DNA of 64,000 nt from positions 1-64,000 of the forward strand of contig JAPDJH010000002.1 of the NCBI GenBank assembly GCA_029259175.1. Reading direction: 5' to 3'. The DNA comes from Hadesarchaea archaeon. GTDB lineage: Archaea > Hadarchaeota > Hadarchaeia > Hadarchaeales > Hadarchaeaceae. Under the pieces are notes generated by a model. The model was not told the DNA's origin, did not search any database, and worked only from the letters and a program-made list of their open reading frames with translations. The position numbers were made by a program, and so were the translations under genes. This document shows, one piece after another, positions 10,961 through 60,746 of the stretch (positions are counted from its first letter, which is position 1; every line of letters starts with the position of its first letter).

Positions 10961-10995
10961 ATAATGTTGGGGGGTAAAAGTCCACCTCCCAAACA

Positions 10996-11997: not shown

Positions 11998-12119
11998 TGG
12001 GCGGTGGGCACCCCGCGTGAGCCGCTGCGGCTTGAGACCGCGTCGAACTGATTGGGGCCCTCAAGCGCAAGACAATCCTGCGGCACCGACCGCGTATAGG
12101 TGCATGCGCTCGTCGCCCA
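11998..12119 (+). ncRNA. Candidate bridge/seek RNA of the intact IS110
   Basis: 12-bp closing stem UGGGCGGUGGGC/GCUCGUCGCCCA enclosing two GCGG-loop-CCGC hairpins, each flanked by internal loops. Confidence 0.55.
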
Positions 12120-12344
12120 ATAATTACAGAACTCGAAACGTTTAAAACCCACATAGGTGCGGCCCAGACCGCTAACAGAAGAATGCCGTCCCGGGGTAAA
12201 AGGCTATATGCCTGCTGGGCAAAGGCTACTCGGAGGTTGTCGGGAGCGGGCCTTCACAGAAGAAGATAAACCAACTATGTTAAACAGTAAGTTTAAAAAC
12301 AATGGTAAAACCGAATAAAAGCGGCAACAAAGAGTATGACTTAG

Positions 12345-13175: not shown

Positions 13176-13185
13176 AACACTCATA

Positions 13186-13795
13186 TCAGAAGGGGCTTCC
13201 TGCTTCAACGACCGAGCTTGTCCCAGCGCGGAGCTGGGATAAGGGCTCGATCTCCACAGGTATGAATTCGGCTAGTTCCTGACCCACTCGCTTCAGTCCT
13301 TCTTGAAGGTCGTTCCACGCGGTGTTCAGGTGGCGGTCTAGCTCTAAGCCGCACTCGGGGCAGCGATGCATCCTCACCCAAAGCGGCTTCTCAACCGCTT
13401 CGCCGCGCCTCGAACATCTCTCTGTCGTCCCCCTCAGCTCGACGCGCACGACCCACCTACCAGCTCTTTCAGCCTTGTAGGTGAGCACGGGAAAAATGTG
13501 GCCCAAGCGGCATCTGCACGGTTCTTGCCGTTGCGGACCATCTCCATTAGCTCTCTCACCCCTAAATCCTCAATAGCGATGTAGTGGTTGGTGTAATGAC
13601 GCGAGAGCTTGTGGAGGAAATCGAGGCGCTGGTTGCAGATTCGCTCGTAGAGCCTCGCCAGCTTGAAGCGTTGCTTTACTCAATTTTTCGAGTCGCGCTT
13701 CTTCCTCGAAAATCTACGCTGCCCCTATTTCAGCTTCTGCTCTGACTTGGCGAGGTTGGGTGGGTGCTCGACGAAGTTGCCGTCGGATAGAGCTT
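13186..13795 (-). pseudogene. tnpB: TnpB (IS200/IS605) pseudogene
   Basis: LSDGNFVEHP, NQRLDFLHKLSR, IAIEDL, HRCPECGLELDRHLNTAWN; stops and frameshifts; GAAGCAGGAAGCCCC right-end-like motif. Confidence 0.85.
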
Positions 13796-25715: not shown

Positions 25716-26008
25716 CTTAAGACCTCCTTCTAAAAAGTCTCTCCAATCAATTATAAGTAGTTTGGGCTACGTGGCCACACATGTCCATTGAAAAGGGGAA
25801 GCTAAAACAAATGATTGTGTGATATCGTCGATGGTTCTCGCTCATGAGTTTCGTTTGGGACTTCGTGAAGCTGTAAATGAGATCCAACCCACAAGCATTC
25901 AGAAATCAGAGGTCATCGTCCACCAGCCTCAAACGACGAGCGAGGTTGGTAGACAAAAACCCTTCCACATGTGACCGCACGGTGTCAGAAGCAAATAACC
26001 TTCATTCT

Positions 26009-26407
26009 CTATTTCTCAGCGGTCTGACTCAACTTGCTTGGCCCGTAAATCGCAAGTGATTTGTCATAGAAAGAGAGCATTGCCTCGGGAGTCATCGTAA
26101 GCGCTTTCGTTGGACACCTCTCAACACACAATCCACAAAAACAACATTTTCCCAAATGGATCTGGGGATATGTTTTGCCGTTAAATTTCACCATTTCGAT
26201 AGCATTATTGGGGCAGACTCTCGAACACATTCCACAGCCCACACATTTTTCTAAATTTAAGAAATGTCTTCCTCTATAGTCCTTTACGGGTTCTAAAGAT
26301 TCGCTAGGAAATTTCAGAGTCATCGGCTTTTTAAAGAGTATTCTAAAAATCACTTTGGCAGGTTTAATCAAACCCATGACGGACTTCAACAAATTCATTT
26401 CGATCAC
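26009..26407 (-). CDS. NuoI/MbxN-like 2x[4Fe-4S] subunit
   Basis: TLKFP, YRGRH, CVGCGMCSRVCP, CCFCGLCVERCP. Confidence 0.9.
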   Translation of the reverse strand: MIEMNLLKSVMGLIKPAKVIFRILFKKPMTLKFPSESLEPVKDYRGRHFLNLEKCVGCGMCSRVCPNNAIEMVKFNGKTYPQIHLGKCCFCGLCVERCPTKALTMTPEAMLSFYDKSLAIYGPSKLSQTAEK

Positions 26408-47866: not shown

Positions 47867-47909
47867 CGGATAATTGTCGGTGCGGTGGCTTTTTTTGATT
47901 TTAGGAAGG

Positions 47910-48195
47910 GGATTCTCTTCGAAACCCTTGACTCGCAAATACTTTCGCCGGCCTCTCCCCGAAACGAGCTTAAACGGGAAGGCGGAACCGCTTTACGGAA
48001 TGCCCGGGTCAGTGACTCCAGAGAGCGCTTCCCGCACCGTCCGTGGCGCTCTGCGGGAAGCAGGTCACGCGCGGATCAACAAGCCCGGAAAAGAGGTTCC
48101 CGGAGCAGCGCTCCGGGAACGGGGCCGTGCGGGTTCCGGCCCTGAAGGCGGCCTAGAGCCGCCAACTTCGGAGGTCAAGGCTTCCGAGGAGAACC
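47910..48195 (+). ncRNA. ~290-nt structured repeat element, copy 1 (MITE-like / novel ncRNA)
   Basis: Homologous to 58923-59211; complementary ends; TAGGAAGG on both flanks. Confidence 0.7.
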
Positions 48196-48233
48196 TAGGA
48201 AGGGTTTTAGAGTTGCAACGCTAGAAGGAATGG

Positions 48234-48671
48234 ATGACTCGGGCGGAGTACGGGAGCGGCAGAGTGATTCTTGCACGTTTGCCCCACAACGGGGTTATTC
48301 CGGAGGAGATCCAGAGGGCCGCGGAGGACTTCCAGATTCGGATGGGGGTTTTCACTTTGGTGGGGGCTCTGAAGCGGGCAAAGCTCGCGTATTATGACCA
48401 GCGACGCAGGGAATACAAGGTTCTCGAGGTGCTCGGTCCGCACGAGATAGTCAGCTGCGTGGGCAACGTGTCGCTCTACAAGCGGAAGCCCTTCGTGCAC
48501 GCGCATATCGTGCTTGCTGACGAGCACGGAGGCACTAAAGGAGGACATCTGTTGCAGGGGGTTGTTTTCGCCGCCGAGCTTCACTTACACGAGTTGAGTG
48601 GACCGATTCTGGAGCGGAGACCGGATCGGACCACAGGTCTAGCACTCTGGCAGCGCTCAAAACTCTTATGA
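48234..48671 (+). CDS. PPC-domain (DUF296) protein
   Basis: VGAL, EIVSCVGNVS, HAHIVL, GGHL. Confidence 0.92.
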   Translation: MTRAEYGSGRVILARLPHNGVIPEEIQRAAEDFQIRMGVFTLVGALKRAKLAYYDQRRREYKVLEVLGPHEIVSCVGNVSLYKRKPFVHAHIVLADEHGGTKGGHLLQGVVFAAELHLHELSGPILERRPDRTTGLALWQRSKLL

Positions 48672-48825
48672 TGGACAATCGCGACCAGCACGGTTCGTCA
48701 AGCGCTGAGATTATCGAGTTCAAATCGAGGTCGAAAAAGGTCTAGTACGGCATGCTTTGAAGCCGAAAACCCTGTACATAGCTTGCACGTCGAGGGGGCC
48801 TGTTGGATTTTTCATGTTTAGTTGG

Positions 48826-48874
48826 TACAACTGGGGAGTTGTATTCCTGCGGGTTATACAACCGGGGAGTTGTA
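48826..48874. promoter_or_regulatory. Two tandem palindromes TACAAC-N6-GTTGTA, 31-bp period
   Basis: TACAACTGGGGAGTTGTA (48826-48843) and TACAACCGGGGAGTTGTA (48857-48874). Confidence 0.6.
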
Positions 48875-49061
48875 AGCCCTTGCATCCTTTGCGCCCGGCT
48901 AGCCAGAATTGAGCATGGTGGTGTGAATCGTGAGCGCGCCAAGCTCGGAACCCGTTCGATGCATCCCGACCTCTTCCGCCACCGAGTGCTCCACCGGGTT
49001 GGAAAAAGCCTCGGAGGGTCAAACCTAAATAACGCCTTTCATATGTTCTCGAGGTGGAAGA

Positions 49062-50297
49062 ATGGCCAGCTTCGACCTGGTGATCAAGAACGCGAGGACG
49101 AGGGCAGATCCTAAGCAAACCGTGGAGATCGCGATAAGCAACGGCAAGATCGCGCGGATTGGACACTCCGTCGGGAAGGGTGACCAGGAAATTGATGCCG
49201 GAGGCGGCTTGGTCACGGAAAGCTTTGTGAACGCTCACCTGCACATGTGCAAAGTGTACACCTTGGAAATGATTGGGGAGGATGCGATGCGGGCATACCA
49301 AGAGGGAGGCATGGACAAAGCGATGATCGCGATTGAGCTGGCCTCCAAGGTCAAGCGCAAGTACAAAGCGGACTGGATTTACGAGAACGCAAAACGCGCT
49401 TTGCTTCTCGGAATCAAACACGGTGTTCTGCACTACCGCGCGTTCGTGGACACCGATACCAAAGGAAAGCTGGAGGGCATCAAAGCTCTGCTCAAGCTAC
49501 GCGATGACTTCCGTGACCTGGTGGACTTGCAGGTGGTGGCGTTTCCCCAAGACGGTGTTGTTCGCGATCCGGGAAGCGAAGCGCTTGTGCGAAAGGCTGT
49601 GGAGCTCGGAGCCGATGTGGTTGGCGGTATCCCTTGGATCGAGTACACCGAGGAAGACGCCCAGCGCCATGTGGATTTGATGTTTGACATCGCGGTGGAG
49701 CACAATCGAGACATTGCCATGCTCACTGATGACGCGGGAGATCCGGGACTGCGCACCACAGAGATGCTCGTGCGCCGAGGCATCAAAGAGGGATGGACTG
49801 GAAGGGTAGAGATCTGCCATGCTCGTGCCATGCAGCTTTATCCCGGCCCGTACTTCGAGAAGCTCGTGGCGCTGCTGAAGCGATGCGACGCGGGAGTCGT
49901 TTCCGATCCGCACACCGGACCGCTCCACGCCCGTGTTTTTGAACTGCTCCAGCACGGCGTGACAGTAGCTCTGGGTCAGGACGACATTGCCGACGCCTAC
50001 TATCCCTACGGCCAGAACTCCATGCTTGAAGTGGCCTTCTTGGCCTCTCACCTGTTGTGGGCGACCACCTTTCACAAAATGGACGTTCTCTACGACATGA
50101 TCACCGTGAATCCAGCCAAAATTTTGAGATTGTCGGCTTACGGGCTCAAAGAGGGTAGCCGTGCTGATCTGGTGGTGCTAGGGGCGCGCTCGGTGTATGA
50201 GGCCCTGACGTACCAAGACCCGCCGCGGTACGTGATACGAGCTGGCAGGGTGATCGCTGAAAACATCGCTGAGACCAAGTACGGGTTCTCCCTTTAG
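49062..50297 (+). CDS. Cytosine/creatinine deaminase-like amidohydrolase
   Basis: NAHLHMCK, VAFPQDG, VGGIP, CHA, LGQDD..D.YYPYG. Confidence 0.88.
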   Translation: MASFDLVIKNARTRADPKQTVEIAISNGKIARIGHSVGKGDQEIDAGGGLVTESFVNAHLHMCKVYTLEMIGEDAMRAYQEGGMDKAMIAIELASKVKRKYKADWIYENAKRALLLGIKHGVLHYRAFVDTDTKGKLEGIKALLKLRDDFRDLVDLQVVAFPQDGVVRDPGSEALVRKAVELGADVVGGIPWIEYTEEDAQRHVDLMFDIAVEHNRDIAMLTDDAGDPGLRTTEMLVRRGIKEGWTGRVEICHARAMQLYPGPYFEKLVALLKRCDAGVVSDPHTGPLHARVFELLQHGVTVALGQDDIADAYYPYGQNSMLEVAFLASHLLWATTFHKMDVLYDMITVNPAKILRLSAYGLKEGSRADLVVLGARSVYEALTYQDPPRYVIRAGRVIAENIAETKYGFSL

Positions 50298-51487
50298 AGC
50301 CATCCACGACTGCGCATGGTCTCGACCAAATTCTGTGTTGCCAATGCCAGAGCAGCCGTGCGCATGGAGACCTTGTGTTCGTCCGCAAACTCTAGCACGT
50401 GGTCGAAGGTCTCAGAGAGAATGGATCGGATGGTGTCAAAGGTTTCCTCCCGTTTGGTTCGCGTGCCGGACTTGCCCTTTCTCCACTCGTCGTAACTGGC
50501 GATAACACCTCCAGCGTTTGCCAAGATGTCCGGAACGACGGGGATTCGCCTTTTCGTCAGGATTTTGTCCCCTTCCGGAGTCGTGGGTGCGTTCGCGGCC
50601 TCGATCACCAGCCGGGCCCTGACCTCGGGCGCACTCTTAGTGTTGAGCACCGCACCTACAGCGGCTGGGATGAGCACGTCAACGTCTAGGCTTAAGAGCT
50701 GCTCGTTGGAAATCCGCTGGGCCTCGAATCCTTGCACACTGCCCGTTTGTTGCGCATGTTTTCTCAGTTCGACGATGTTCAAACCATTGGGATCGTACAG
50801 GCCTCCGCTTACATCTGAGACGCCCACGATCCGCGCCCCCCACTCCGAAAGAAACGTGCACAACCACGACCCGACGTTTCCGAATCCCTGCACCGCCACG
50901 GTGGTTTCTGACAGTTCCTTTTTCAGAAACTCGCGCACTGCACGCGCGGTGATGACGGCCACTCCGTACCCCGTGGCCTCGAGACGTCCCGGAAGCCCGC
51001 CGATCCCAACGGGTTTTCCTGTCACGCTTTCTCGGATGTGTGTTTCTGAGAAGATGTCGGCCATCTCGGAGGGCCCCGTTCCTAGGTCGGGCCCGGGCAC
51101 AAAGTTCCCAGAAGTCAGTTCGTACCGGAGTTCGTGGGCAAAGCCGTGCATGATCATTGATTTCGCTTCGCGTGACAATGTGCTTTCTGCGGCTATCCCG
51201 GCCTTGGCTCCACCGAAGGGCAAGTCCATGAGTGCGTTTTTGTAGGTCATGAGCTCCGCTAGCTGGATGGTCTCTTCCAGGGTCACGTGAGAACTCATTC
51301 GAACGCCCCCCTTGTAGGGAGGACCGCGCGCCGTGTTGTGATACACCACGAATACGTGCACAACGTGGTGTCCGGGCGGCAGATAGCGGCGGATCCGGAA
51401 GTGAATTACGCGGTCCGGTTCGCTTAACAGCTCGAGGGTTCGCTCTGGAGCGCCTATGAGATCGAGGATCTGAGAGTTGATGAGCAT
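50294..51487 (-). CDS. Glu/Leu/Phe/Val dehydrogenase
   Basis: KGGVR, MTYKNA, GGAKAG, VTGKP, EATGYG, QGFGNVG, EAAN, PDILANAGGV. Confidence 0.93.
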   Translation of the reverse strand: MLINSQILDLIGAPERTLELLSEPDRVIHFRIRRYLPPGHHVVHVFVVYHNTARGPPYKGGVRMSSHVTLEETIQLAELMTYKNALMDLPFGGAKAGIAAESTLSREAKSMIMHGFAHELRYELTSGNFVPGPDLGTGPSEMADIFSETHIRESVTGKPVGIGGLPGRLEATGYGVAVITARAVREFLKKELSETTVAVQGFGNVGSWLCTFLSEWGARIVGVSDVSGGLYDPNGLNIVELRKHAQQTGSVQGFEAQRISNEQLLSLDVDVLIPAAVGAVLNTKSAPEVRARLVIEAANAPTTPEGDKILTKRRIPVVPDILANAGGVIASYDEWRKGKSGTRTKREETFDTIRSILSETFDHVLEFADEHKVSMRTAALALATQNLVETMRSRGWL

Positions 51488-51574
51488 CAGTTCTGTATGG
51501 GTGAGTGTGACAAAATAAAGGTGGCGGTGTACACGCCAGTCAGATTTTTAGGCGGTTGGTCGAGGTTATTGTGC

Positions 51575-52402
51575 ATGGAGCGAGTTGCGGATCTGCATGT
51601 CCACACCACCTACTCCGACAGCATTTATTCGCCAGAGCAGGTTCTCAGGGTAGCGAAGGAGCGCGGTCTTGCGGCCATCGGGATCTGTGATCACGACTCG
51701 GTCAGCGGGATTGAAGAGGCGCTGGAGCTCGAGAGCCGATACGGGGTCGAAGTGGTTCCAGGGATTGAGTTGAGCACCGAATACCGCAACATGGAGGTTC
51801 ACATCTTGGGATACTTCATGGATTGGAATGATTTGCAGTTTCAGGCACTCTTGAAGACCATTCAGGAGGTGCGAAAGTGGAGGGCGGAGCTCATGGTCAC
51901 CAAACTCCGACAGCTGGGATTCAATCTGGAGTTCGAGGAGGTGCTGGCCGAGTCGGACAAGGGCGCGGTGGGCAGACCACACATCGCGAGGCTCATGGTC
52001 AAGAAGGGCTATGTGGCGACGATGGATGAGGTGTTCGAGAAGTACTTGAAGTACGGGGGGCCCGCTTACGTTCCGAAGTACAACATGCTGCCGGAGGAGG
52101 CGGTGCGGCTGGTGCGAAAGCTGAGGGGCATTCCGGTGCTGGCCCACCCGAAGTTTTCTCCTCTGAGTGAGGAAGAGATCGAGTACTTGATAAGCCAGGG
52201 GCTGAGGGGGATCGAGGCCTATCACGCACGGCACACTCCAGAGGAGGCACAGCAGTACGTGGCGCTCGCGGAAAAGTACGGATTGCTCATCACGGGGGGC
52301 AGCGACAGTCACGGAGAAGAGGATCCAATCGGGTGTGTGCGCCTGCCGTACGAGCACGTGCGCAGATTGAAGGAGGAGCGAAAGCGGATGGTGTTCGAGT
52401 GA
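51575..52402 (+). CDS. PHP-domain phosphoesterase
   Basis: DLHVHTTYSD, CDHD, HILGY, GRPH, LAHP, GGSDSHG. Confidence 0.93.
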   Translation: MERVADLHVHTTYSDSIYSPEQVLRVAKERGLAAIGICDHDSVSGIEEALELESRYGVEVVPGIELSTEYRNMEVHILGYFMDWNDLQFQALLKTIQEVRKWRAELMVTKLRQLGFNLEFEEVLAESDKGAVGRPHIARLMVKKGYVATMDEVFEKYLKYGGPAYVPKYNMLPEEAVRLVRKLRGIPVLAHPKFSPLSEEEIEYLISQGLRGIEAYHARHTPEEAQQYVALAEKYGLLITGGSDSHGEEDPIGCVRLPYEHVRRLKEERKRMVFE

Positions 52403-53094
52403 GGGTACGGGCGAGGGCCGCCATTTTCGACCTCGACTGCACTCTGGTCGACACTCTGGAAAGATTTTTTGAGGTGTTCAACGAGTGTCTGAAGCGCAGG
52501 GGGCGCGGGGAGCTCGGCTGGGACGAGTTCTTCAAGCACTATGTGGACGATACCCTCGACGATGTGGTCGCCCCCTCGGGCACTTCAGACCGGGACCGCG
52601 TCCTCCACGAGTTCTGGATGGAGTTCCTGTGGAAATACCGGGAGGGGGATCCAAAGGCCAGGCTTATTCCCGGAGTACGGGAGGTTTTCGAGGAGCTCTG
52701 TCGTCGCGGTGTCCCCATAGCCGTTATCACGAGTTGCATTGTTCCGTTCGGGAAGGTGCGGGAGGAGCTGGACGCCCACGGAATTGGTGAGTTCGTTAAA
52801 GTCGTGGTTACGGCTCACGATGTGGTGCAGGAGCTCGAGCGCGGTCATCACTTCTCCAAGGTCGAGATTTTTCAGCTGGCTGCCGAGCGGCTTGGGGTGA
52901 GGCCCCAAGAGTGTGTGGTGGTGGGCGATTACTGGAATGACATCCGCGACGGGAAAAGGGTGGGTGCGCGCACGGTGGCGGTTCTCACGGGGCTGATGAG
53001 GCGTGAGCTGCTCGAGCGCTACGGGCCGGACGCAATAATTCCCTCAGTTAAAGAGCTGTTTGATGTGGTTCAGTTCGAGCCACCACAAGAGTAA
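52399..53094 (+). CDS. HAD-family hydrolase
   Basis: FDLDCTLVDT, VVGDYWND. Confidence 0.9.
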   Translation: MRVRARAAIFDLDCTLVDTLERFFEVFNECLKRRGRGELGWDEFFKHYVDDTLDDVVAPSGTSDRDRVLHEFWMEFLWKYREGDPKARLIPGVREVFEELCRRGVPIAVITSCIVPFGKVREELDAHGIGEFVKVVVTAHDVVQELERGHHFSKVEIFQLAAERLGVRPQECVVVGDYWNDIRDGKRVGARTVAVLTGLMRRELLERYGPDAIIPSVKELFDVVQFEPPQE

Positions 53095-53122
53095 AAACTA
53101 GTGGAGTTCTTCTGGTGAATGG

Positions 53123-53461
53123 ATGCACATAGATGGCACGAGTTTCGGATCGATTACAATCGACGGAACCGTATACAATCACGATGTCTGGATTCGTGTA
53201 GACGGATCAGTGAAAAGGCGCGACCGCAATCACGAGTTCACGCTGGACGAGGCGTGGGAGCTGCTCGAGGGGGATCCGGAAATCATCGTGGTGGGCACGG
53301 GACAAGCCGGGCGTGTTCGGATCGAGGATGCGGTTGTTGAGGAGCTGCGAAAGCGTGGGGTTGAATTGGTGGCAGCTGAAACGCCCAAGGCCATCCTGTT
53401 TTTCAACGACGCGGTCCGGAAGGGAAGACGAGTTGCCGCAGCGCTTCACGTCACTTGCTGA
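53123..53461 (+). CDS. Mth938-like domain protein
   Basis: FGSITIDG, VVGTG, ALHVTC. Confidence 0.9.
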   Translation: MHIDGTSFGSITIDGTVYNHDVWIRVDGSVKRRDRNHEFTLDEAWELLEGDPEIIVVGTGQAGRVRIEDAVVEELRKRGVELVAAETPKAILFFNDAVRKGRRVAAALHVTC

Positions 53462-53496
53462 ATTTCTCGATATTTAGAAAACGGCGGACTTACGCG

Positions 53497-54093
53497 CTAC
53501 TTCGAAAGCGCTTTCATCCCCAGCTCAAACGCCCTCGCGTTGGCATCGATGGTTTTCGGCGGGACGTTTTCCTTTATAGCCTCCTTCAGGACCTCGGCTG
53601 GAAACGGAAGCTTTCCCGTCGCCGCCAGAGCTCCGAGCATCACCGTGTTCGCAGTCCGAACATTGCCCGCCTCCTGCGCCAGCTTGGTGGCATCCAGCTT
53701 GATCAGCTTCCCCTTCAGCTTGCTGATCGCCTGCTCGATCTCCTCCATGCTCGGATACCGCGCCCTCCCTATGTTTACGTCCATCGGATACCACGGATGG
53801 ATGTTCGTTATCACCAACCCCCCGGGCTTCAGGAACTTCACAGCGTTCCGCAGCCCCTCCAGCGGCTCAACAGCCACTATGACGTCCGCCCCGTCGCACG
53901 GCACCAGCGGCCCTTCAACCGTTTTACCAATCCGCACATGGCTCGCCACCGCTCCTCCTCGCATAGCCGCCCCAAAGGTTTCTCCAACCCTGGCCCGCAG
54001 CCCTGCCTTGATGGCAGCGATCGCCACGATGTGTGAAGCCAGAATGCTTCCCTGACCTCCGACCCCCGCAATGATCAGGTTCAGCTCGCTCAC
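53497..54093 (-). CDS. iorB: Indolepyruvate:ferredoxin oxidoreductase beta subunit
   Basis: AGVGGQG, ETFGAAMRGGAV.SHVRIG, N.VMLGAL. Confidence 0.92.
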   Translation of the reverse strand: MSELNLIIAGVGGQGSILASHIVAIAAIKAGLRARVGETFGAAMRGGAVASHVRIGKTVEGPLVPCDGADVIVAVEPLEGLRNAVKFLKPGGLVITNIHPWYPMDVNIGRARYPSMEEIEQAISKLKGKLIKLDATKLAQEAGNVRTANTVMLGALAATGKLPFPAEVLKEAIKENVPPKTIDANARAFELGMKALSK

Positions 54094-56066
54094 TCCTTCA
54101 CCTCCTCGATCGCCCCGAACGGGCACACCTGTTTGCACATCCCGCAGTTCACGCACAGAATCGGATCGATCCCCGCCTTCTTCCGCTCAGTGTCGAAGGT
54201 CGTAGCGGGACATCCAAAGCTCACACACAGCATACAGCCCGTGCACTTTTCCTCGTTGACCCGGGTCTGCTTAGCCCTCGGCTTGTACTGTTTCAGTCTC
54301 AGTGCCTGCAGAGTGCACACGCGCCTGCTCACCACTATCGCGAACTTGCCGCTTTGGATCGCCCGCTCAATGGTTTGCTGCGTGGCTTTCAGATCGTATG
54401 GATCCGTCACCTCCACGAACTCCACTCCGATGGCTTGCGCTATCCCCTCGATGCTCAGCTTCGCAGCCTCCTCCCCTGTGGCGGTGACCCCCGTGCACGG
54501 ATCCGGCTGGTGACCCGTCATCGCAGTCCAGTGGTTGTCCATCACCACGAACACGCCCTTCGCCTTATTGTACACCGCATTCACGATGGCTGGCAAGCAC
54601 GCATGGAAGTACGTGGAGTCTCCAGCTACAGCCACGAGCGCACCGTCTTTGTATCCCGCGTGGTGTTGCCCCTGCATGAGCCCGATACCTCCCCCCATGA
54701 TGTAGTTGGTGTCCAGCGTCTCATACGGCGCTTGGATGGGATAGGCCTTCGACTCGCTGGAATCGCTCGGCTCGTAGCGTTTTCCCGCAATGCCGTACCC
54801 TCCCTGTTCGTAACACCCGATATCCCCGTTTACTATGGGAACTTTTCCGCCAACCCGCTTCAGCGCCTGTTTCAGCGCCCAGTAGGTGCCCAGGTGCGGA
54901 CAACCGGCGCATAGTGTTGAGGACCGGGGCGCCACGAGCTTCTGGATCTCCTCCTTGATTTTTTCCCGTTCTTCGTCCTTCTCGAGTTCCATCCCGAGAG
55001 CCTTCGCTATGGATTGCTTGGCTATATCCGGGTTGAGCTCCCCCACCCGCGGGACGTGCCCGGTAAACCTCCCGAGCAACTCCACCCCCGGTGCCACATC
55101 TTTTGCCAGCGCCTTGACCTGCAGCTCGATCACGGGCTCGCCTTCTTCCACGACCAGCACGCGCTTCACCGATTTCAGGAGCTTGGACGTGAGCTGCTTG
55201 GCGACGGGCACCGGAGCCGCCAGTTTGAGAAAAGCAACTTTGTCTTCCACCCCCAGCAGCCGGAGAGCGTCTTTCGCAAAACTGGCAGCAATCCCGCTGG
55301 CGATTATCCCGAGCTCAGCCCCCTCGACCAGCTTGAGCTCGTTCCAGGGGAGTTTCTCGACGGCCTGCTCGATCTCAGCTTGTTTGGAGTGCAACCACCG
55401 GTGCTTCTCCACTGGGCCCGGCGGACCGTAGACGTTCCATCGCCACGCCATCCGCCAGTGCTTGTCAAAGACCGGTCGCCGCTCCGGGGCCTTGATGGGC
55501 CCAAGCTCGACATCACCGGATGCGTGCGATATCCGTGTGACCGACCTCAGAAAGACCGGAAGCTCCAGCTGCTCCGAGAGTTCGAACGCATACTTGCACA
55601 TGTCTTTCGCTTCCTGAGCATTGGAAGGCTCCAAACACGGGATCTCTCCATAGAACGCGGCGAAGCGGGTGTCCTGCTCGTTGGACGAGTAGTGCGCATC
55701 GGGATCATCAGCCACCGCTATTACAAACCCTCCCCGCACCCCTCCGTACACGAGCGTCATAAACATGTCCATCACCCAGTTGAGCCCAGCGTTCTTCATC
55801 GAGGTTATCGCCCGCACTCCCGTTATGGCGGCCCCAGCAGCGACCTCGAATGCAACTTTTTCATTGGTCGACCATTCCGCGTGAAAGCCCAGCTTCTGTG
55901 CCGCATCTGCGAGGGTTTCGAGAATCTCAGATGCTGGAGTCCCGGGATAGGAGGCGGCAACTTGGACTCCAGCCTCGATCGCGCCCCTCGCGATCGCTTG
56001 ATTACCCATCAGCAAAACGCGTTTTCCCGGAGCATCTTGCGTTATGAAGTCCGTGAGTTTGCCCAT
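54090..56066 (-). CDS. iorA: Indolepyruvate:ferredoxin oxidoreductase alpha subunit
   Basis: GNQAIARGA, YPGTP, NEKVA, LCAGCPH, GDIGCY, GDSTYFH, TAMTG.QP, two Fe-S motifs. Confidence 0.95.
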   Translation of the reverse strand: MGKLTDFITQDAPGKRVLLMGNQAIARGAIEAGVQVAASYPGTPASEILETLADAAQKLGFHAEWSTNEKVAFEVAAGAAITGVRAITSMKNAGLNWVMDMFMTLVYGGVRGGFVIAVADDPDAHYSSNEQDTRFAAFYGEIPCLEPSNAQEAKDMCKYAFELSEQLELPVFLRSVTRISHASGDVELGPIKAPERRPVFDKHWRMAWRWNVYGPPGPVEKHRWLHSKQAEIEQAVEKLPWNELKLVEGAELGIIASGIAASFAKDALRLLGVEDKVAFLKLAAPVPVAKQLTSKLLKSVKRVLVVEEGEPVIELQVKALAKDVAPGVELLGRFTGHVPRVGELNPDIAKQSIAKALGMELEKDEEREKIKEEIQKLVAPRSSTLCAGCPHLGTYWALKQALKRVGGKVPIVNGDIGCYEQGGYGIAGKRYEPSDSSESKAYPIQAPYETLDTNYIMGGGIGLMQGQHHAGYKDGALVAVAGDSTYFHACLPAIVNAVYNKAKGVFVVMDNHWTAMTGHQPDPCTGVTATGEEAAKLSIEGIAQAIGVEFVEVTDPYDLKATQQTIERAIQSGKFAIVVSRRVCTLQALRLKQYKPRAKQTRVNEEKCTGCMLCVSFGCPATTFDTERKKAGIDPILCVNCGMCKQVCPFGAIEEVKE

Positions 56067-56086
56067 CGGCTCACCTTTTCATCATT

Positions 56087-57436
56087 TCATTGCTGGTTTA
56101 AATTTTTGCGTTTTGCGTACCGGTACATGGCGGCCAGAGCCTTTGCCCCGCGCACCGGATCGGAAAACACTGGTATGCGCTTTTCCGCGAGCTTTCTTTT
56201 TTCCTCCTCTTCTGCTCTGCCACCGCCCAGCATTACCGCGATCACCGGCTTTCCCTTCTTCAAGTGTTTTTCCACCACCTCTGCGATCCCGGGCATCGGA
56301 TCTCCCACAATCGCCAGAACCGAGTCGACCCCCTCCTCCCCCAGCAGGATTTCGAGAGCATCGTCGTACATCTGAGTCGTGGCGCTCCCAGTGAGATCCA
56401 GCGGATTCTTGAAAATGCACTGCGGCGGCAGCTTCTCTTTGAGCCTGTCGACGGTGGCGGACGAGAGATCCACGACTTCGAGCCCGCTCTCCTCGCACGT
56501 GTCCGTTGCCAGGATTCCGCATCCGCCGGAGCTTGTTATGATCACCGTCCGCGGCCCTCGTGGCAGCGGCAACATGGCCAGTGCTTTGCAGTAATCGTAG
56601 AGTTCCTCCACCGAGTACGCCCTTATCAGACCCGCTTGCTTGAACGCGGTGTCGAACACCTGATCCAGCCCCGCCAGCGTGCGCGTGTGCGACTGGGCCG
56701 CTTCCGCCCCCTTCTCCGTCCGCCCGCCTTTCAGCACAACCACCGGCTTGTTTTGTGCAACCTTGCCTGCAGCTTCCAGAAATCTTCGGCCATCACGCAC
56801 GCCCTCAATGTAGAGGGCGACAACCTTCGTTTGGTCGTCGTCCGCGAAGTACTCCAGCAGCTCCGTTTCGTCCACATCGCATTTGTTCCCGAGGGCCACT
56901 TGTTTCGACGTCCCTATTCCTTCGTCTTCAGCCCAACACCCGAGCGCAGCGAAGACAGTCCCGCTTTGAGAAACCACCGAGATCGGGCCGGAGAGCTTGA
57001 CCAGAGGCCAGCTGGCGCACAGCCTGGCAGGCATGCTGTTTATCCCCTGACAGTTGGGCCCAATCACTCTGACATTCGACTTTTTCGCCGTCTTCACGAG
57101 CTCCTGCTCCAGTTTTTCCCCATCCGGCCCGACCTCTCTGAACCCGCCGGAAATAATCACAGCAGCTTTGATCCCCTTCTGCCCGCACTCTTCTATCACC
57201 CTGTTCACAAACTTGGCGGGGACGACGATGATTGCCAGATCCACTTCCCCCGGGATCTGAGTAACCGAGGGATAGCATTTCAGCCCGAGGACTTCGTCGG
57301 CCTTTGGATTGATCGGATAGATCCCGCCCTCAAAACCCGCATCGATGATGTTGCGCAAAATCTCATGCCCCAGCTTGCCCGGCTCACGGGACGCGCCCAC
57401 TACCGCAACTCCTCGTGGCTGGAAGAACTCCTTCAT
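56087..57436 (-). CDS. acdA: ADP-forming acyl-CoA synthetase alpha subunit
   Basis: VAVVGAS, GPNCQG, SQSG, LKGGR..GA.AAQSHT, NPLDLTG. Confidence 0.9.
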   Translation of the reverse strand: MKEFFQPRGVAVVGASREPGKLGHEILRNIIDAGFEGGIYPINPKADEVLGLKCYPSVTQIPGEVDLAIIVVPAKFVNRVIEECGQKGIKAAVIISGGFREVGPDGEKLEQELVKTAKKSNVRVIGPNCQGINSMPARLCASWPLVKLSGPISVVSQSGTVFAALGCWAEDEGIGTSKQVALGNKCDVDETELLEYFADDDQTKVVALYIEGVRDGRRFLEAAGKVAQNKPVVVLKGGRTEKGAEAAQSHTRTLAGLDQVFDTAFKQAGLIRAYSVEELYDYCKALAMLPLPRGPRTVIITSSGGCGILATDTCEESGLEVVDLSSATVDRLKEKLPPQCIFKNPLDLTGSATTQMYDDALEILLGEEGVDSVLAIVGDPMPGIAEVVEKHLKKGKPVIAVMLGGGRAEEEEKRKLAEKRIPVFSDPVRGAKALAAMYRYAKRKNLNQQ

Positions 57437-58836
57437 TCGATCACCGGCCAGTTGGGCCCGATTCTCAGTCCGCGTCTCGCATCGACTTCCGGCCCTACTC
57501 TGGAGGCCTCCTCGATCACTTTTTCCTCGTCTATGGTGAGTATTTTTCTTTTTTCCATCACGACTCGCCCGTCGATTATTACCGTTTCTACATCGCTCCC
57601 GTTTGCCGCGTATACCAGGGTGGACACCGGGTTGCGAACCGGCACGAGGTGCGATTTCCGCATGTTTACCACTATGACGTCGGCAAGCTTTCCGGGCTCG
57701 ATCGATCCCAGCTCATCGCCCCAAAGCGTGGCTTTCGCCCCGTTGACGGTGGCCATCTCCAACACGCGCTCGGCGGGCATGACGATGGGGTTCAACAAGC
57801 GAGCTTTGTGAATTATGGCTGCCAGCTTCATCTCTCGGATCATGTCGTAGCAGTCGTTGCTCGGACCCCCGTCGCACCCAAGCGCAACATTCACTCCCGC
57901 GTCCAGCATCTCGGGAATCGGGGCGAAGCCGGATGCCAGCTTCAAATTGGAGGCCGGACAGTGGCACACGGTGCCCCCCGTTTCACGCAAGATGGGGAAG
58001 TCTTCCGGTGGCATCCACACGCAGTGCACGTAGATCACCTTCACATCTGGACCCACCAAGTTGCAGTGTTTCATGAACTGCATGGGGGTCATACCAAACT
58101 CGTTGCGCATGTAGCGGATATCGTCCTGGACTTCTGCGAGGTGCAGCGTTATCCCCGTCTGGTACTTGCGGGCGTTTTCTCCGATCTCACGATAGTACTC
58201 CACCGTGGCTCCCCCCGGGGTGCGCGGCCCGAACCAGATGTGAATGCGATTGTTGGCCTTCCCGTGCCACCGTTTGATCATCTGGATGCACTGACGCATC
58301 GCCGTCTCTCCGTCCTCCCGCATGTCCGGATGGATCGCCTCCGGGAAGTCCGCGTATCCAGGGAGGTTCATGAGCTTCTTGCTTATGGCCCCCCTCATTC
58401 CCACTTCCTCCACGGCTCGAGGTACCTCGTCCAGACCGTACTTCCAGTGAAGACTGCTCTCCACGAAGCAAGTGGTACCGGATTTGATCATCTCGATGCA
58501 GCACAGCTTGGCGCTCAGCTCGCCCTCGCGGGGGGTGTAGCTTCCCTGGAGCGGGTGCACCCGCTTGGTCAGCCAATCGACAAGCGAGAGATCGTCCGCA
58601 CACCCCCGCAACAAAGCTTGGGCGAGGTGGACGTGACAGTCCACGAAGCCCGGCAGGATCAAGCGATGGGTACAATTGTATTCACGATCCGCGCGCGGAT
58701 ACTCCTTCACGATGTCAGAGGTTTTTCCGACAGCGACTATGCGGTTTCCATCGATGGCGACTGCGCCGTCCTTGATGATTTCGCGCCGTTCGTTCATGGT
58801 GATTACGGTACCGTGCTTGAGCAAGATGGAAACCAT
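57433..58836 (-). CDS. Amidohydrolase (MTA/SAH deaminase / AtzA-TrzA family)
   Basis: DCHVH, LHLAE, VHCV, HCPASNLKLASG, LGCDG..SN. Confidence 0.92.
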   Translation of the reverse strand: MVSILLKHGTVITMNERREIIKDGAVAIDGNRIVAVGKTSDIVKEYPRADREYNCTHRLILPGFVDCHVHLAQALLRGCADDLSLVDWLTKRVHPLQGSYTPREGELSAKLCCIEMIKSGTTCFVESSLHWKYGLDEVPRAVEEVGMRGAISKKLMNLPGYADFPEAIHPDMREDGETAMRQCIQMIKRWHGKANNRIHIWFGPRTPGGATVEYYREIGENARKYQTGITLHLAEVQDDIRYMRNEFGMTPMQFMKHCNLVGPDVKVIYVHCVWMPPEDFPILRETGGTVCHCPASNLKLASGFAPIPEMLDAGVNVALGCDGGPSNDCYDMIREMKLAAIIHKARLLNPIVMPAERVLEMATVNGAKATLWGDELGSIEPGKLADVIVVNMRKSHLVPVRNPVSTLVYAANGSDVETVIIDGRVVMEKRKILTIDEEKVIEEASRVGPEVDARRGLRIGPNWPVIE

Positions 58837-58922
58837 ATCAACCCCGTTAATAGACGAATCTCGCTTTAAAAAACTCTCGCCCCAAGTCCCGCGCGCTTCT
58901 GAAAATATTTCTAGATCTAGAG

Positions 58923-59211
58923 GGGTTCTCTTCGAAACTTTGACCCGCAGATACTTTCGCCTACCCCTCTCCCCGAAACGGGCTTAAAGAGAGAGGTGGA
59001 ACCGCTTTACGGGATGCCCCGGGGCCAGTGACTCCAGTGCGCGCTTCTCGCACCGTCCGTGGCGCTCTGCGGGAAGCGGGATTGCGCGGGTCGACAGGCC
59101 CGGGGAAGAGGTTCCCGGAGCAGCGCTCCGGGAACGGGGCCGTGCGGGTTCCGGCCCTGAAGGCGGCCTAGAGCCGCTAACTTCGGAGGTCAGGGCTTCC
59201 GAAGAGAACCC
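58923..59211 (+). ncRNA. ~290-nt structured repeat element, copy 2 (MITE-like / novel ncRNA)
   Basis: GGGTTCTCTTCG...CGAAGAGAACCC ends; TAGAG on both flanks; homologous to 47910-48195. Confidence 0.7.
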
Positions 59212-59242
59212 TAGAGAGAACACCGGAAATTGATGGGGTCAA

Positions 59243-59851
59243 ATGGAGCTCGTGCTCGTGGGCCGTTCCAACGTGGGCAAGTCCAGCCTGATCAGACGAT
59301 TAACCGGCCTGCGCGTCCGAGTGGGAAAACGTCCGGGCGTTACGCGCAGGACGAGACGATACCGATTGGATGGATTGGAAGTGGTGGACCTCCCCGGCTT
59401 TGGCTTCATGTCCGGCGTTCCAAGGGGGATCCAAGAAAGGATTAAAACTCAGCTTATCCGTTATCTCGAAAGTCACAGCAAGCGCATTGGAGTGGCAATA
59501 GAGGTCATCGACGCCCGCTCGTTCCCAGAGATAGTCGAGCGCTGGGAGCGCCGGGCCCAGATCCCTGTCGATGTGGAGTTCTTCCATTTTTTGAAAGACC
59601 TGCGCCTGGATCCGATCATAGCCGTGAACAAAATCGATTTGATATATCCGGACGAGCGCGACGATCTCTTGGACTTCATTTGTGAGCGAATGGACATGCT
59701 GCCTCCCTGGAGACAGTGGCTTGACGTGGTCGCGCCGGTGTCAGCGCGCACGGGTGAGGGGATTGCCCATCTCCGCCGGCTGATCGAAAAGAGGCTGCGA
59801 AAAAAGAAAATGGAGCACCTCATGAGGGTCTTCCGCAAGCGTAGCGGATAG
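59243..59851 (+). CDS. engB: GTP-binding protein EngB (archaeal)
   Basis: GRSNVGKSS, PGVT, DLPGFG, NKID, WRQW. Confidence 0.93.
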   Translation: MELVLVGRSNVGKSSLIRRLTGLRVRVGKRPGVTRRTRRYRLDGLEVVDLPGFGFMSGVPRGIQERIKTQLIRYLESHSKRIGVAIEVIDARSFPEIVERWERRAQIPVDVEFFHFLKDLRLDPIIAVNKIDLIYPDERDDLLDFICERMDMLPPWRQWLDVVAPVSARTGEGIAHLRRLIEKRLRKKKMEHLMRVFRKRSG

Positions 59852-59855
59852 CGAA

Positions 59856-60746
59856 CTATTTCAGTTCAGAACGAGCGGGTGACGTGACGAGTTTTCTGAT
59901 GACTTTCCAGAGATCGATGTCCGGGGTCTTCCCGCGCCGGAGGTCGTCAACGGCTACGAGCGTGTCGAGCCCGATTTTGATCATGTCCTCTTCCAGTTTT
60001 TTCTTGTCCACCTTGCTGACATCGATCTCTCCCTCCGCCGCTGGCGATGCCAGTATTGCGAGCAGTTCACACGTGAGGATTTTACCGGGGCGTTGGCCTT
60101 CATAGAAGTCCCGGATTATGCAGTACACGGAGAACTCCATCGAGCTGGCCATCACTCCCATTCGCTTGTATGATTCGAGCTTGGGCTCCATGAACTCGCG
60201 CAGCGGTGAAAAGTGTGGTGTTTCCACGAAGTAGAGATCGTCTTTGACGTGCGTGATCCCCACCCATAGATTCTCCAGCAGCTCGTACCCGTGTTTTTCT
60301 GCCACTCCCGCCACGATGGGGATCAGCTCCGGATTCGCCATGGCTGGATACTCGGCTCCCACAACGGCTCTGGTCGTCCCCTCGTCTCGCACGCAGCCGG
60401 CGCTTATCACGAGGTCTCCAACGCGGATAAACGTCTGGAGCGCCCCCGCGGTCCCGAGTCTGAGCAGCGTTACGGGGCCCTCGGTGGCTTCGATGGCCTC
60501 GGGAAGAACTATTGCGGTGCTAGCGGGCCCCATGCCTGTGGGGAAGGCAGAGACTGGAATGCCTCGGTACTCGCCGCTGACAACCGTGTGCCCCCGATCC
60601 CCCTCCACCATCTCAACGTTTTTCAGGTATTTCGCAATTTTTTTCACCCGCCCGGGAGAACCTGCCGTGAGGATGTTGGGATGGAGTTTGTCGATCTCTA
60701 GGTGATAGGCTTTCCCCGTTGCGGTTTTGAAAGTTATGGACACCAT
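59856..60746 (-). CDS. Nucleoside (uridine-type) phosphorylase
   Basis: YHL, GSPGRV, TGMG..S, RLGTAG, RDEGT, SME. Confidence 0.88.
   Translation of the reverse strand: MVSITFKTATGKAYHLEIDKLHPNILTAGSPGRVKKIAKYLKNVEMVEGDRGHTVVSGEYRGIPVSAFPTGMGPASTAIVLPEAIEATEGPVTLLRLGTAGALQTFIRVGDLVISAGCVRDEGTTRAVVGAEYPAMANPELIPIVAGVAEKHGYELLENLWVGITHVKDDLYFVETPHFSPLREFMEPKLESYKRMGVMASSMEFSVYCIIRDFYEGQRPGKILTCELLAILASPAAEGEIDVSKVDKKKLEEDMIKIGLDTLVAVDDLRRGKTPDIDLWKVIRKLVTSPARSELK

Follow-up and report, generated by a model that had tools for sequence, protein, structure and literature searches.

Two diverged repeats in divergent intergenic regions

The window, that is, the whole stretch of 64,000 nucleotides analysed, contains two direct repeats, copy A (47911-48195) and copy B (58924-59210), which are 88% identical over ~290 nt (E 5e-99). 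As originally predicted, these are diverged copies placed ahead of plus-strand genes, each in a divergent intergenic region, with the downstream ORF starting 38 nt further on in copy A and 32 nt further on in copy B. The features of the two copies and their flanks are as follows:

47902-47910, plus strand: left target-site duplication of copy A, TAGGAAGGG, preceded by TTT; a second copy of these 9 nt occupies 48196-48204
47911-48195, plus strand: copy A of the MITE (miniature inverted-repeat transposable element), with a length of 285 nt, 88% identity to copy B and three blocks homologous to parent element F
47939-47975, plus strand: putative tnpB promoter kept in copy A, with upstream motif ACTTTC..CTCTCCCC, BRE-like CGAAA and TATA-like CTTAAAC
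48096-48195, plus strand: predicted omegaRNA scaffold of copy A (fold, H1/H2 covariation, loop-tail pseudoknot classes), with H1 48096-48120, H2 48121-48143, H3 48147-48163, H4 48166-48189 and tail AGAACC 48190-48195
48196-48204, plus strand: right target-site duplication of copy A, direct repeat of 47902-47910
about 48196-48215, plus strand: putative guide of copy A, beginning with the right duplication and placed there because the scaffold stops at the end of the element
58917-58922, plus strand: left flanking repeat of copy B, CTAGAG, a degenerate duplication that recurs at 59211-59216
58924-59210, plus strand: copy B of the MITE, 287 nt, repeat of copy A; the site lacks the element in the congeneric genome G043
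58924-58938, plus strand: left terminal inverted repeat of copy B, GGTTCTCTTCGAAAC, reverse complement of the right terminus ..CCGAAGAGAACC (59199-59210)
58951-58989, plus strand: putative tnpB promoter kept in copy B, with TATA-like CTTAAAG at 58983-58989
59014-59016, plus strand: ATG of copy B, a remnant of tnpB
59043-59077, plus strand: middle hairpin of copy B, GCTTCTCGCA / TGCGGGAAGC, from an internal tnpB piece (blastn and folds)
59111-59210, plus strand: predicted omegaRNA scaffold of copy B (fold, covariation), with H1 59111-59135, H2 59136-59158 (loop GGGTTC 59146-59151), H3 59162-59178, H4 59181-59204 and tail AGAACC 59205-59210
59211-59230, plus strand: putative omegaRNA guide segment of copy B, in the DNA flanking the right end and placed from the scaffold architecture

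The paired ends noted in the original prediction are terminal inverted repeats of 14-24 nt, with GGTTCTCTTCGRAAC on the left and its complement on the right of every copy (0-3 mismatches). Flanking 9-nt direct repeats, fixed in length and variable in sequence, are clean in four of six copies, match at 8 of 9 positions in one and are degenerate in copy B. The flanking repeats proposed for the window copies are present, in copy A as the clean 9-nt duplication TAGGAAGGG and in copy B just as the 6-nt CTAGAG, which is out of the 9-nt register. An empty site is found in G043, in which the orthologues of the two genes flanking copy B lie ~50 nt apart with no element between them.

Internal-deletion derivatives of a tnpB element

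The genome of the window (G000) holds five full-length ~287-nt copies, two of them in the window, and the copy search also recovered the parent, split into two pieces, as well as a single incomplete right end. The copies are short (285-288 nt, below ~500 bp) and have no protein-coding gene, the only protein traces being 29-37 residues left over from the TnpB C-terminus. Parent element F, of which G000 has a single full copy (1,177 bp, G000:C6:24883-26059), has as its sole gene an intact tnpB of 356 aa. MITE positions 3-82 align to the left end of the parent, positions 109-152 to an internal piece (78% identity to the interior of F for copy B, blastn) and positions 155-289 to its last 135 nt, so that what survives in the MITEs is the left end, putative tnpB promoter included, then 45 nt of the interior and finally the 135 nt at the right. 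Devoid of coding capacity and derived from the 1,177-bp tnpB element by internal deletion, the ~290-nt repeats are MITEs, and all five share one ancestral deletion, their common architecture representing a single event and not five.

A search of 65 genomes of the order recovered full-length copies from G000 alone. The closest relative element, in genome G059 (63% amino-acid identity), has a different inverted repeat, 10-nt duplications in four of six end pairs and many independent deletion derivatives. Many of the latter keep just 66-93 nt of the right end, which implies that the whole scaffold is not obligatory for persistence.

The TnpB protein of the parent element

The 356-aa ORF of the parent matches Pfam PF07282 (1.1e-19) and the NCBIfam model guided_TnpB (NF040570; 155.7 bits, cut-off 100), and is the only intact one among seven tnpB matches in G000. 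Its catalytic motifs include a D (DLGE), a G that replaces the E of RuvC-II, a conserved alternative E (SEAHTS) and NADLN, and it contains a CxxC..CxxC zinc-finger motif. These motifs match the RuvC-II-rearranged class as described in PMC10691335. By homology, the parent TnpB is an RNA-guided nuclease, with predicted cleavage activity.

Promoter, transcription and downstream genes

In F and in its closest relative, the tnpB ATG is preceded, at a distance of ~22 nt, by the upstream motif and TATA seen in the MITEs, and the same upstream motif also stands before host genes. Each of the five MITEs is followed, after 32-149 nt, by a co-oriented ORF, as would be expected if the copies persisted as mobile promoters or 5' leaders that drive or regulate host genes. 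Four of the five sites are divergent intergenic regions, though, where either orientation would face a gene, and MITE orientation therefore carries little weight. In our own reading, copy B separates the TATA-like AAAATATTT from the start codon of a GTPase gene, while the ~50-nt gap between the same genes in G043 carries a TATA of its own; against this, copy A leaves the TATA-like TTTTAGAG between the element and its downstream gene. Two RNA-library contigs overlap copy B, both without strand or level information and with DNA carry-over possible. One (run X14) spans 59030-59248, ending 38 nt past the right end and thus bridging copy B and the gene start, and the other covers 58931-59089, upstream of the predicted start. 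No evidence of regulation emerged from these data. A leader or promoter effect on downstream genes is possible, but that such an effect is the reason for the persistence of the copies seems quite unlikely.

Insertion sites and the transposase

To the left, directly 5' of the duplication, 8 of 10 insertion sites have the trinucleotide TTT (background frequency 0.022), as do 4 of 5 MITE sites; AAA is absent on the other side. This one-sidedness is compatible with a TnpB TAM, but could instead stem from the transposase's own target choice.

The parent, which has the same ends as the MITEs, encodes TnpB and no transposase, with no DDE gene inside. DDE transposase genes are present in G000, one of them in an IS5-like IS with a 9-bp duplication, shared by its homologue in genome G049, and with ends that differ from those of the MITEs. 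The original prediction had suggested a search for an autonomous IS with the same ends; neither a transposase nor any ORF flanked by matching ends was found in the 91%-complete G000 assembly, nor was a transposase with matching ends found in G059, where in our own alignment 14 of 17 positions agree between the ends of the relative and the IS5-like inverted repeat. The search for Y1 transposases (PF01797), positive as a control in 6 of 14 genomes, gave 0 matches in the same G000 assembly.

A predicted omegaRNA scaffold at the right end

The last ~100 nt fold into four hairpins (H1-H4) and a pseudoknot of the H2 loop with the terminal GAACC, a conserved structure that in the parent overlaps the 3' end of tnpB and reaches the right end. 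In 46 related sequences, pairing in H1 and H2 amounts to 83.1% against 66.2% when shuffled, both sides change in 15 of 17 pairs, and the covariation score is 0.515 against 0.230 when shuffled, a level reached by 0 of 500 shuffles and compared with 0.272 at most in slid controls. Wobbles in these helices are mostly of the kind tolerated on the sense strand (91 G-U vs 22 A-C). Judged by motif class, 46 of 65 sequences, from five classes, have an H2 loop complementary to the terminal 5-6 nt, among them all five MITEs and the parent. Moreover, the four-hairpin layout is common to G000 and G059, although the sequences of H4 and the tail are entirely different. Sense-strand covariation across the TnpB family thus argues that the last ~100 nt are an omegaRNA scaffold. 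The original prediction had paired the loop UGCGGGUU with 5' GACYCGCA, which is present in this family but has no counterpart visible by eye in the closest relative; the GGUUC of this loop pairs with the terminal GAACC instead, and it is this pairing that covaries across the family.

The internal helices listed earlier can all be found in the sequence, and the minimum-energy folds contain them too. Strand-specific structure, claimed for the element as a whole, is confined to the 3' ~100 nt and becomes apparent there once relatives are added: over the entire element, three of five copies have a minus-strand fold at least as good as that of the plus strand, and the consensus energy is -114.6 kcal/mol for the plus strand vs -116.8 kcal/mol for the minus strand. 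In the five-copy consensus both sides change in just 2 of 96 pairs.

The fold z-scores of the two window copies (-3.65 and -5.34) are strong, and no Rfam 15 family matched at gathering score across the window, nor below E = 1 with either copy alone (best sub-threshold scores 16.2 and 14.1 bits). Both results would fit an independent new family of structured ncRNA or ribozyme that happens to be repeated. The silence of Rfam is explained by the fact that this omegaRNA type matched none of its families, and a new family is extremely unlikely: every block has its homologue in the tnpB element, the parent shows the structured 3' part overlapping the coding end of tnpB, the minus strand folds as well, the 65 genomes of the order yield no full-length copies beyond G000, and nothing points to catalysis. 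The structured part shares homology with the 3' end of a tnpB gene and its downstream end, and so corresponds to a TnpB omegaRNA scaffold, a known class; the proposal of an unnamed family, be it a novel ncRNA, a ribozyme or a regulatory leader, finds no support. The other proposal, an RNA-structured MITE, is right, given the inverted termini, the duplications, the longer parent and a 3' RNA structure under sense-strand constraint.

Relation to known systems

OMEGA (TnpB-omegaRNA) systems of IS200/IS605 elements such as ISDra2 share with the elements described here a TnpB gene with RuvC and zinc-finger motifs (in the parent) and a scaffold that extends from within the 3' part of this gene to the right transposon end; a guide taken from flanking DNA and a short motif 5' of the target would be further common features, predicted in our case. 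TnpB-omegaRNA function in these elements is described in 10.1101/2023.03.14.532601 and PMC8612924. According to the descriptions in PMC13565253 and PMC3119063, IS200/IS605 elements have asymmetric subterminal hairpins and, as IS607, neither terminal inverted repeats nor target-site duplications, whereas here inverted-repeat ends and 9-bp duplications are present, no Y1 TnpA was found in G000, and the partner of the H2 loop in the pseudoknot is the inverted-repeat terminus itself.

PATEs (palindrome-associated transposable elements) derive from IS605-type elements and 'often encode omegaRNAs' that are acted on in trans (10.1101/2023.03.14.532601, PMC3119063). Like PATEs, the MITEs are protein-less deletion derivatives of a tnpB element in which both ends survive and which rely on proteins supplied by other loci, and they keep the guide-RNA scaffold, as omegaRNA-encoding PATEs do. 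The copies could even be regarded as PATEs of the IS200/IS605 type, moved as single-stranded DNA by a Y1 TnpA, given that TnpB belongs to the IS200/IS605-associated superfamily, that relatives in G049 (~40% identity) show typical subterminal hairpins and no inverted termini, and that the right end includes a hairpin (H4) with a short tail behind it. This is very unlikely, as PATEs are described without inverted termini or duplications and as moved by Y1 TnpA, whereas the copies here fall under the definition of MITEs and keep the tnpB promoter. Membership in IS200/IS605 (IS1341 group) or among PATEs is contradicted by the inverted termini and duplications and by the lack of a Y1 match in G000.

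Branches of TnpB associated with DDE transposases and bounded by inverted terminal repeats have been reported (Altae-Tran et al., 2023; PMC10691335) and are summarised as ISL2, IS630 and IS1031 in PMC13565253. As in these branches, the parent TnpB lies inside symmetric inverted repeats and its 3' end is less than 250 bp away from the end of the transposon; solo TnpBs bounded in this way are also known (PMC10691335). Unlike these branches, the element has no DDE gene inside, and none with matching ends was found. The main-text description in PMC10691335 mentions neither MITE progeny nor loop-terminus covariation, and this Hadesarchaea-type family may already be listed in that work. Fanzor, found in eukaryotic TIR/TSD transposons (PMC3627910, PMC13565253), is similar in combining a TnpB-family nuclease and a guide RNA in cut-and-paste elements that make target-site duplications, but the present elements belong to a prokaryote, have a compact TnpB of 356 aa (in the parent) and are much smaller. 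With classical prokaryotic MITEs the copies share a short, non-coding, multi-copy and intergenic nature, inverted termini and duplications; they differ in their interior, which is not arbitrary but comprises a putative promoter and a predicted guide-RNA gene for a nuclease other than the transposase. Rather than a new kind of RNA, the repeats represent a known type of mobile element in an unusual form (DDE-linked TnpB; omegaRNA-bearing PATEs).

Proposed function of the MITE-encoded RNAs

The copies might be inert, decaying deletion derivatives in which scaffold and promoter are leftovers, not usefully transcribed and unused by TnpB. Pairwise divergence among them is 0.10 in the 3' region vs 0.12-0.20 elsewhere, a modest excess of conservation along a weak gradient (0.20 to 0.087), and recent spread together with the transposase's need for the ends could account for it. 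Inertness would also suit the frequent loss of most of the scaffold in G059 derivatives and the paucity of both-side changes among the five copies, and strandless RNA-library contigs are no proof of transcription. However, H1-H4, the H2 loop and the tail are intact in all five copies, changes in H1 and H3 among them comprise six G-U vs one A-C (alignment read by eye), TTT is one-sided at four of the five sites, and the same genome encodes an intact TnpB whose element has a scaffold 94% identical to that of the MITEs. Inertness thus appears rather unlikely.

Most probably, the MITEs are protein-less copies of the tnpB element that keep its promoter and omegaRNA scaffold, are mobile through a DDE transposase acting in trans, and produce RNAs that serve TnpB in trans, a use that we infer from sequence features. 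In the proposed mechanism, a DDE transposase making 9-bp staggered cuts would move parent and MITEs in trans. The kept archaeal promoter would start RNA near MITE position ~90, and this RNA would run through the scaffold into flanking DNA, so that each copy would make an omegaRNA with its own target-site duplication and right flank as guide. The TnpB of the single full copy would load the MITE RNAs and cut element-free alleles bearing the TTT motif (TAM) 5' of the target, after which recombinational repair would restore the element; such cutting and repair of TTT-flanked empty alleles would account for TTT being one-sided at insertion sites. The outward transcript may incidentally also feed into the co-oriented gene that begins 32-149 nt further downstream.

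The copies and their parent element

The two ~290-nt repeats of the window, copies A (47911-48195) and B (58924-59210), are very probably MITEs derived from a TnpB element, and carry with them the omegaRNA scaffold of that element. The direct repeats on which the original prediction was built are real, as copies A and B share 88% identity over ~290 nt (E 5.2e-99; repeat families D7, D11 and D12), and their placement was correctly described: each copy lies between divergent ORFs, 38 nt (A) and 32 nt (B) before a plus-strand ORF, the downstream ORFs encoding a PCC-domain protein and a GTPase. Ten matches, five of them full-length, came from a BLAST search of the genome that holds the window (G000; 1.31 Mb, 23 contigs, 90.9% complete).

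Matches to the repeat in the genome of the window (contig:positions, strand, description)
C3:47909-48195, plus, full-length copy A
C3:58922-59212, plus, full-length copy B
C4:115501-115788, minus, full-length copy
C4:30186-30471, plus, full-length copy
C2:184207-184491, minus, full-length copy
C6:24883-24941 and 25952-26059, copy divided by ~1 kb (the parent)
C6:61329-61401, partial right end
element positions 30-69 only, two short matches

The divided copy is a 1,177-bp element whose sole ORF, of 356 aa, encodes TnpB (PF07282 at 1.1e-19; NCBIfam guided_TnpB at 155.7 bits, cut-off 100). The genome has 7 tnpB matches, of which this one alone is intact; 5 of the others are C-terminal remnants of 29-37 residues located within the short copies. 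In the protein alignment, TnpB has the D in DLGE and NADLN; glycine occupies the position where RuvC-II usually has its glutamate, and an alternative glutamate is conserved in SEAHTS. This is the rearranged type, presumably active, of PMC10691335. Aligned with the full element by blastn, copy B resolves into three collinear blocks, in which positions 3-82 correspond to the left end of the parent, 109-152 to an internal piece of tnpB and 155-289 to the last 135 nt of the parent (86% identity), and the short copies are thus internal-deletion derivatives. Because all five share this deletion architecture, a single ancestral event followed by spread is indicated. Divergence among the MITE copies declines little along the element, from 0.20 at the left through 0.15, 0.12 and 0.10 to 0.087 at the right. 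Full copies were not found elsewhere among 65 genomes of the order, in which the only matching part was a 36-39-nt promoter motif, present in 4 other genomes, and TnpB scans of metagenomes and species genomes returned nothing closer than 62-63% identity.

The structured RNA

The strong fold predicted for the copies was confirmed, both being more stable than dinucleotide shuffles (z -3.65 and -5.34). Its proposed extent and strand specificity did not hold. The minus strand is equally or more stable in three of five copies and the consensus energies of the two strands lie within 2 kcal/mol, so that the full 290 nt is not taken as one RNA fold; structure-preserving changes over the whole element were also not borne out, as both sides changed in just 2 of 96 pairs across the five copies. 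The terminal ~23-nt helix, proposed as RNA, corresponds to the inverted repeat of the DNA, and the predicted RNA starts only downstream of its left arm. For the proposed pairing of a loop with a 5' segment no counterpart was seen by eye in the genome with the closest TnpB relative (G059), and a loop-to-tail pseudoknot takes its place. No match at gathering score to Rfam occurs in the window, scans of copies A and B by E-value gave only noise at E > 1 (naRNA4, DnaX, sar and similar), and ARAGORN detected neither tRNA nor tmRNA in the window. Rather than an unnamed novel RNA class, the copies represent known kinds in an unusual form.

The structure at the 3' end is an omegaRNA scaffold, in which the last ~100 nt form four hairpins (H1-H4) and then a 6-nt tail. 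This layout is identical across the parent, the G059 element and both window copies, with H4 and tail sequences wholly unlike between the two genomes. In the parent, H1 and H2 lie within the tnpB reading frame and the stop codon falls in the H3 loop. A fixed H1+H2 structure was counted on an alignment of 46 elements, in which the parent and copies A and B were combined with the copies in G059 and with relatives taken from genomes and metagenomes. There, 83.1% of cells are paired versus 66.2% when shuffled, both sides changed in 15 of 17 pairs (150 cells), and the covariation score is 0.515 versus 0.230, reached by none of 500 shuffles, figures that are conservative because ten rows of one subgroup, one column off in H1, count as unpaired. 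Sliding the structure by 1-3 columns lowers the score to 0.272 or less. Moreover, G-U cells outnumber A-C cells (91 vs 22 in all rows; 73 vs 10 in the 36 in-register rows), which places the constraint on the sense strand.

The last 5-6 nt of the element can base-pair with the H2 loop. When 65 sequences were sorted by regular expressions into motif classes of H2 loop and element end, a matching class pair was found in 46.

Matching classes of H2 loop and element end (loop / end, number of sequences)
GTGAAC / GTTCAC, 21
TTGACA / TGTCAA, 12
GGGTTC / AGAACC, 8, the parent and all five MITEs among them
GGCTTT / AAAGC, 4
GTCAAC / GTTGAC, 1

Another 13 loops of the 65 fell outside the patterns; 5 of them read GTGAAC or GTGGAC by eye and occur together with GTTCAC ends. 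A further 6 sequences were classified without a partner end (L024, L050, L100, L112, L034 and L037), L024 and L050 being pattern artefacts that by eye combine GTGAAC with GTTCAC. Since the H2 loop pairs with the last nucleotides of the element, the scaffold ends exactly at the inverted-repeat terminus, and the guide must therefore come from the duplication and the right flank. An alternative reading of GGTCAA in the right end as a vestigial IS608-like end, with the inverted repeat as guide, was ruled out, because the same bases also occur in the left-end inverted repeat and the pseudoknot uses the final GAACC.

Element ends and mobilization

All six elements start with GGTTCTCTTCGRAAC and finish with its complement, imperfect similarity extending out to ~24 nt. 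Four of the six are flanked by 9-nt direct repeats of unlike sequence (TAGGAAGGG, CATCCCATC, TCAGCCTCT and TAACTAGCC) and one further copy has a flanking repeat that agrees at 8 of 9 positions. The flanking repeats originally reported for both window copies are present, that of copy B being CTAGAG alone and out of register. A fixed target motif, as in IS605, was rejected as the origin of the duplications, as the six sequences differ. In the parent, the right-hand duplication TAACTAGCC overlaps the stop codon of a convergent SRP54 gene (G000:C6:26063-27409, minus strand), and a contig of the DNA sequencing run X5 joins the right end of the element to a similar SRP54-like flank, so that the parent insertion may be common to a related strain.

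The closest TnpB relative (63% identity, G059) resides in an element of equal size with another inverted repeat, GCTTTGCACAAAAAT, and a 9-10-nt duplication. That genome contains 44 DNA matches to its own element, including three full-length ones (one intact) and many independent deletion derivatives; of six end pairs, four have 10-nt duplications and two none. The TnpB relatives of ~40% identity in a further genome, G049, show the usual IS200/IS605 ends: hairpins in subterminal position and no inverted termini. An automatic inverted-repeat search at ten TnpB relatives found an inverted repeat with a matching flanking repeat only at the parent and at G059; L023, L050 and L029 gave inverted-repeat hits without a matching flanking repeat, and five loci gave no hit. 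Elements of the IS200/IS605 and IS607 families are described in excerpts of PMC13565253 and PMC3119063 as lacking both inverted termini and duplications.

No match to a Y1 transposase was found in G000, the control being positive in 6 of 14 genomes. DDE_Tnp_1 (PF01609) has 4 matches there, 3 above the cut-off. One of these genes belongs to an IS5-like IS outside the window (G000:C3, ~98.4-99.9 kb; 377-aa transposase), with the inverted repeat GGGCTTGGGACAAAAAT and the 9-bp duplication GGATAATTC. Its G049 homologue is 54% identical, shares these ends and likewise shows a 9-bp duplication; no homologue was found in G059. In our own alignment, the ends of the G059 TnpB element agree with the IS5-like inverted repeat at 14 of 17 positions, whereas the G000 ends do not. 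An autonomous IS with the same ends as the copies was not found in G000 by fuzzy inverted-repeat scan, genome self-BLAST or PF01609, and the search in G059 revealed no partner either. From the anatomy of the ends, we infer that a DDE enzyme moves the element in trans. Two small contigs of G000, C19 (1,458 bp) and C23 (1,046 bp), have a GC content of 0.64 versus ~0.53 for the genome and a DDE transposase ORF each, and C23 starts with GGCTTGTAGAAAAAT, the type of end seen in the IS5-like IS. Contamination, or IS copies left out of the assembly, may account for both contigs. In G059, locus L143 (C15:1486-5016) shows by eye a fragment like the N-terminus of a serine recombinase (IS607-type TnpA) beside a degenerate DDE ORF.

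Insertion sites

On the left (tnpB-upstream) side, TTT immediately precedes the duplication at 8 of 10 independent sites, namely those of copies A, C, D and E in G000 (with CTT at the parent and an unclear state at copy B) and all four in G059. No mirroring AAA occurs on the right side at the sites examined. With a background TTT frequency of 0.022, the probability of at least 8 of 10 is 4e-7 even at an assumed 0.1. As a symmetric transposase is expected to leave a symmetric preference, and a target-adjacent motif (TAM) is one-sided and on this side, the one-sided TTT is suggestive of a TnpB TAM. In a congeneric genome (G043), the orthologues of the genes flanking copy B lie ~50 nt apart without an element, in DNA too diverged for base-level mapping. 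Among reads and contigs, no contig joins across the element in the covered parts and an empty allele was not observed, the loose ends at 59210/59211 being those of other copies.

Putative promoter and expression

MITE positions ~30-69 contain ACTTTC..CTCTCCCC, a BRE-like CGAAA and a TATA-like CTTAAA, the latter located ~22 nt 5' of the tnpB ATG in the parent and in the G059 element. By archaeal promoter geometry, this fits a leaderless tnpB mRNA. Because the MITEs keep both the motif and a remnant ATG, an RNA running from position ~90 through the scaffold is plausible. The motif ..TTTC-N-CTCTCCCC-N-CTTAAA also occurs 5' of host genes, including radA, and may represent a lineage-specific promoter class or a regulator site that the element shares.

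Copies of the promoter-type motif before host genes
window ~45620, minus, host gene
G000:C2:30608, minus, radA
C15:5254, minus, host gene
C1:113529, minus, host gene
C7:40067, plus, host gene

Fifteen sequencing runs contain part of the window, two of which (X12 and X14) are metatranscriptomes of one sample. On 58300-59900, X12 has one 159-nt contig (58931-59089, no differences) and X14 one 219-nt contig (59030-59248; 9 differences, all before 59115), contigs that are without strand, ends or level and of a multi-copy element that would assemble preferentially from carried-over DNA. The DNA run of the same sample covers the flanking genes too.

Probable mechanism and relation to known systems

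Most likely, the MITE is a parasite of a DDE transposase that is retained by TnpB. It would depend on the transposase to move and, by means of its own promoter-driven guide RNA, on the one TnpB of the genome to be retained, with possible side effects on the adjacent gene. That TnpB actually uses the MITE RNA is as easily doubted as believed. A broader scenario is conceivable, although we lean slightly against it: in this archaeal order, the TnpB-omegaRNA module may have left the IS200/IS605 chassis for DDE-type cut-and-paste ends, which carry unlike inverted repeats in two genomes, with the pseudoknot co-evolving with each terminus (GGUUC/GAACC, GCUUU/AAAGC); the MITEs would then be guide-RNA-only hyperparasites that take their transposase from one element and their nuclease from another, and the one-sided TTT would be a footprint of RNA-guided homing. 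If true, this would be a prokaryotic counterpart of Fanzor-bearing transposons.

Several of these components have precedents. TnpB-omegaRNA homing in IS200/IS605 elements has been published, as have PATEs that 'often encode omegaRNAs' and are acted on in trans (excerpts of 10.1101/2023.03.14.532601). Excerpts of PMC10691335 cover TnpBs that are tied to DDE transposases and lie between inverted terminal repeats, as well as solo TnpBs whose ends are of this sort, and DDE-associated TnpBs are summarised as ISL2, IS630 and IS1031 in those of PMC13565253. In the article texts searched, no description was found of a prokaryotic TIR/TSD MITE with an omegaRNA, nor of a loop that covaries with the terminus of an inverted repeat; the supplement of PMC10691335 may list the family.

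The benefit that IS200/IS605 and IS607 elements draw from TnpB is attributed to their scarless excision, which leaves an empty site open to cleavage. Prokaryotic links between TnpB and DDE transposons are called rare, and their logic open, in the excerpted PMC13565253. The locus is a compact natural case in which this logic could be tested: beside a single nuclease gene there are five guide-RNA genes without protein, the duplications are clean, a candidate TAM is present, and the scaffold stops exactly where the inverted repeat does. Use of the MITE RNAs in trans would show that a guide-RNA gene can be selfish by itself, and the system would in that case provide a small archaeal TnpB-omegaRNA pair (356 aa, ~100-nt scaffold) with a simple T-rich motif. 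For annotation, the case shows that omegaRNA remnants absent from Rfam can underlie 'novel structured RNA' calls made beside genes of small archaeal genomes.

Other repeats and mobile elements

The region 9261-13506 of the window is a mobile-element hot spot. In it, the 233-nt repeat D6 consists of the 3' ends of two paralogous genes, at 9261-10025 and 12345-13175, which hardly differ there.

Mobile-element features of the hot spot (window positions, strand)
10996-11997, plus, IS110-like transposase ORF
10451-10873, plus, IS110-like C-terminal fragment
10154-10402, minus, TnpB C-terminal remnant
13186-13506, minus, TnpB C-terminal remnant

A second dispersed repeat family of G000, with 80-94% identity and a small repeated ORF, is found at C1:221875-222353, C2:129726-130347, C7:60833-61423 and C5:15888-16133. 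Tandem repeat arrays with periods of 96-123 nt lie at window positions 1871-2415, 3382-3840, 15878-16069 and 20026-20991.
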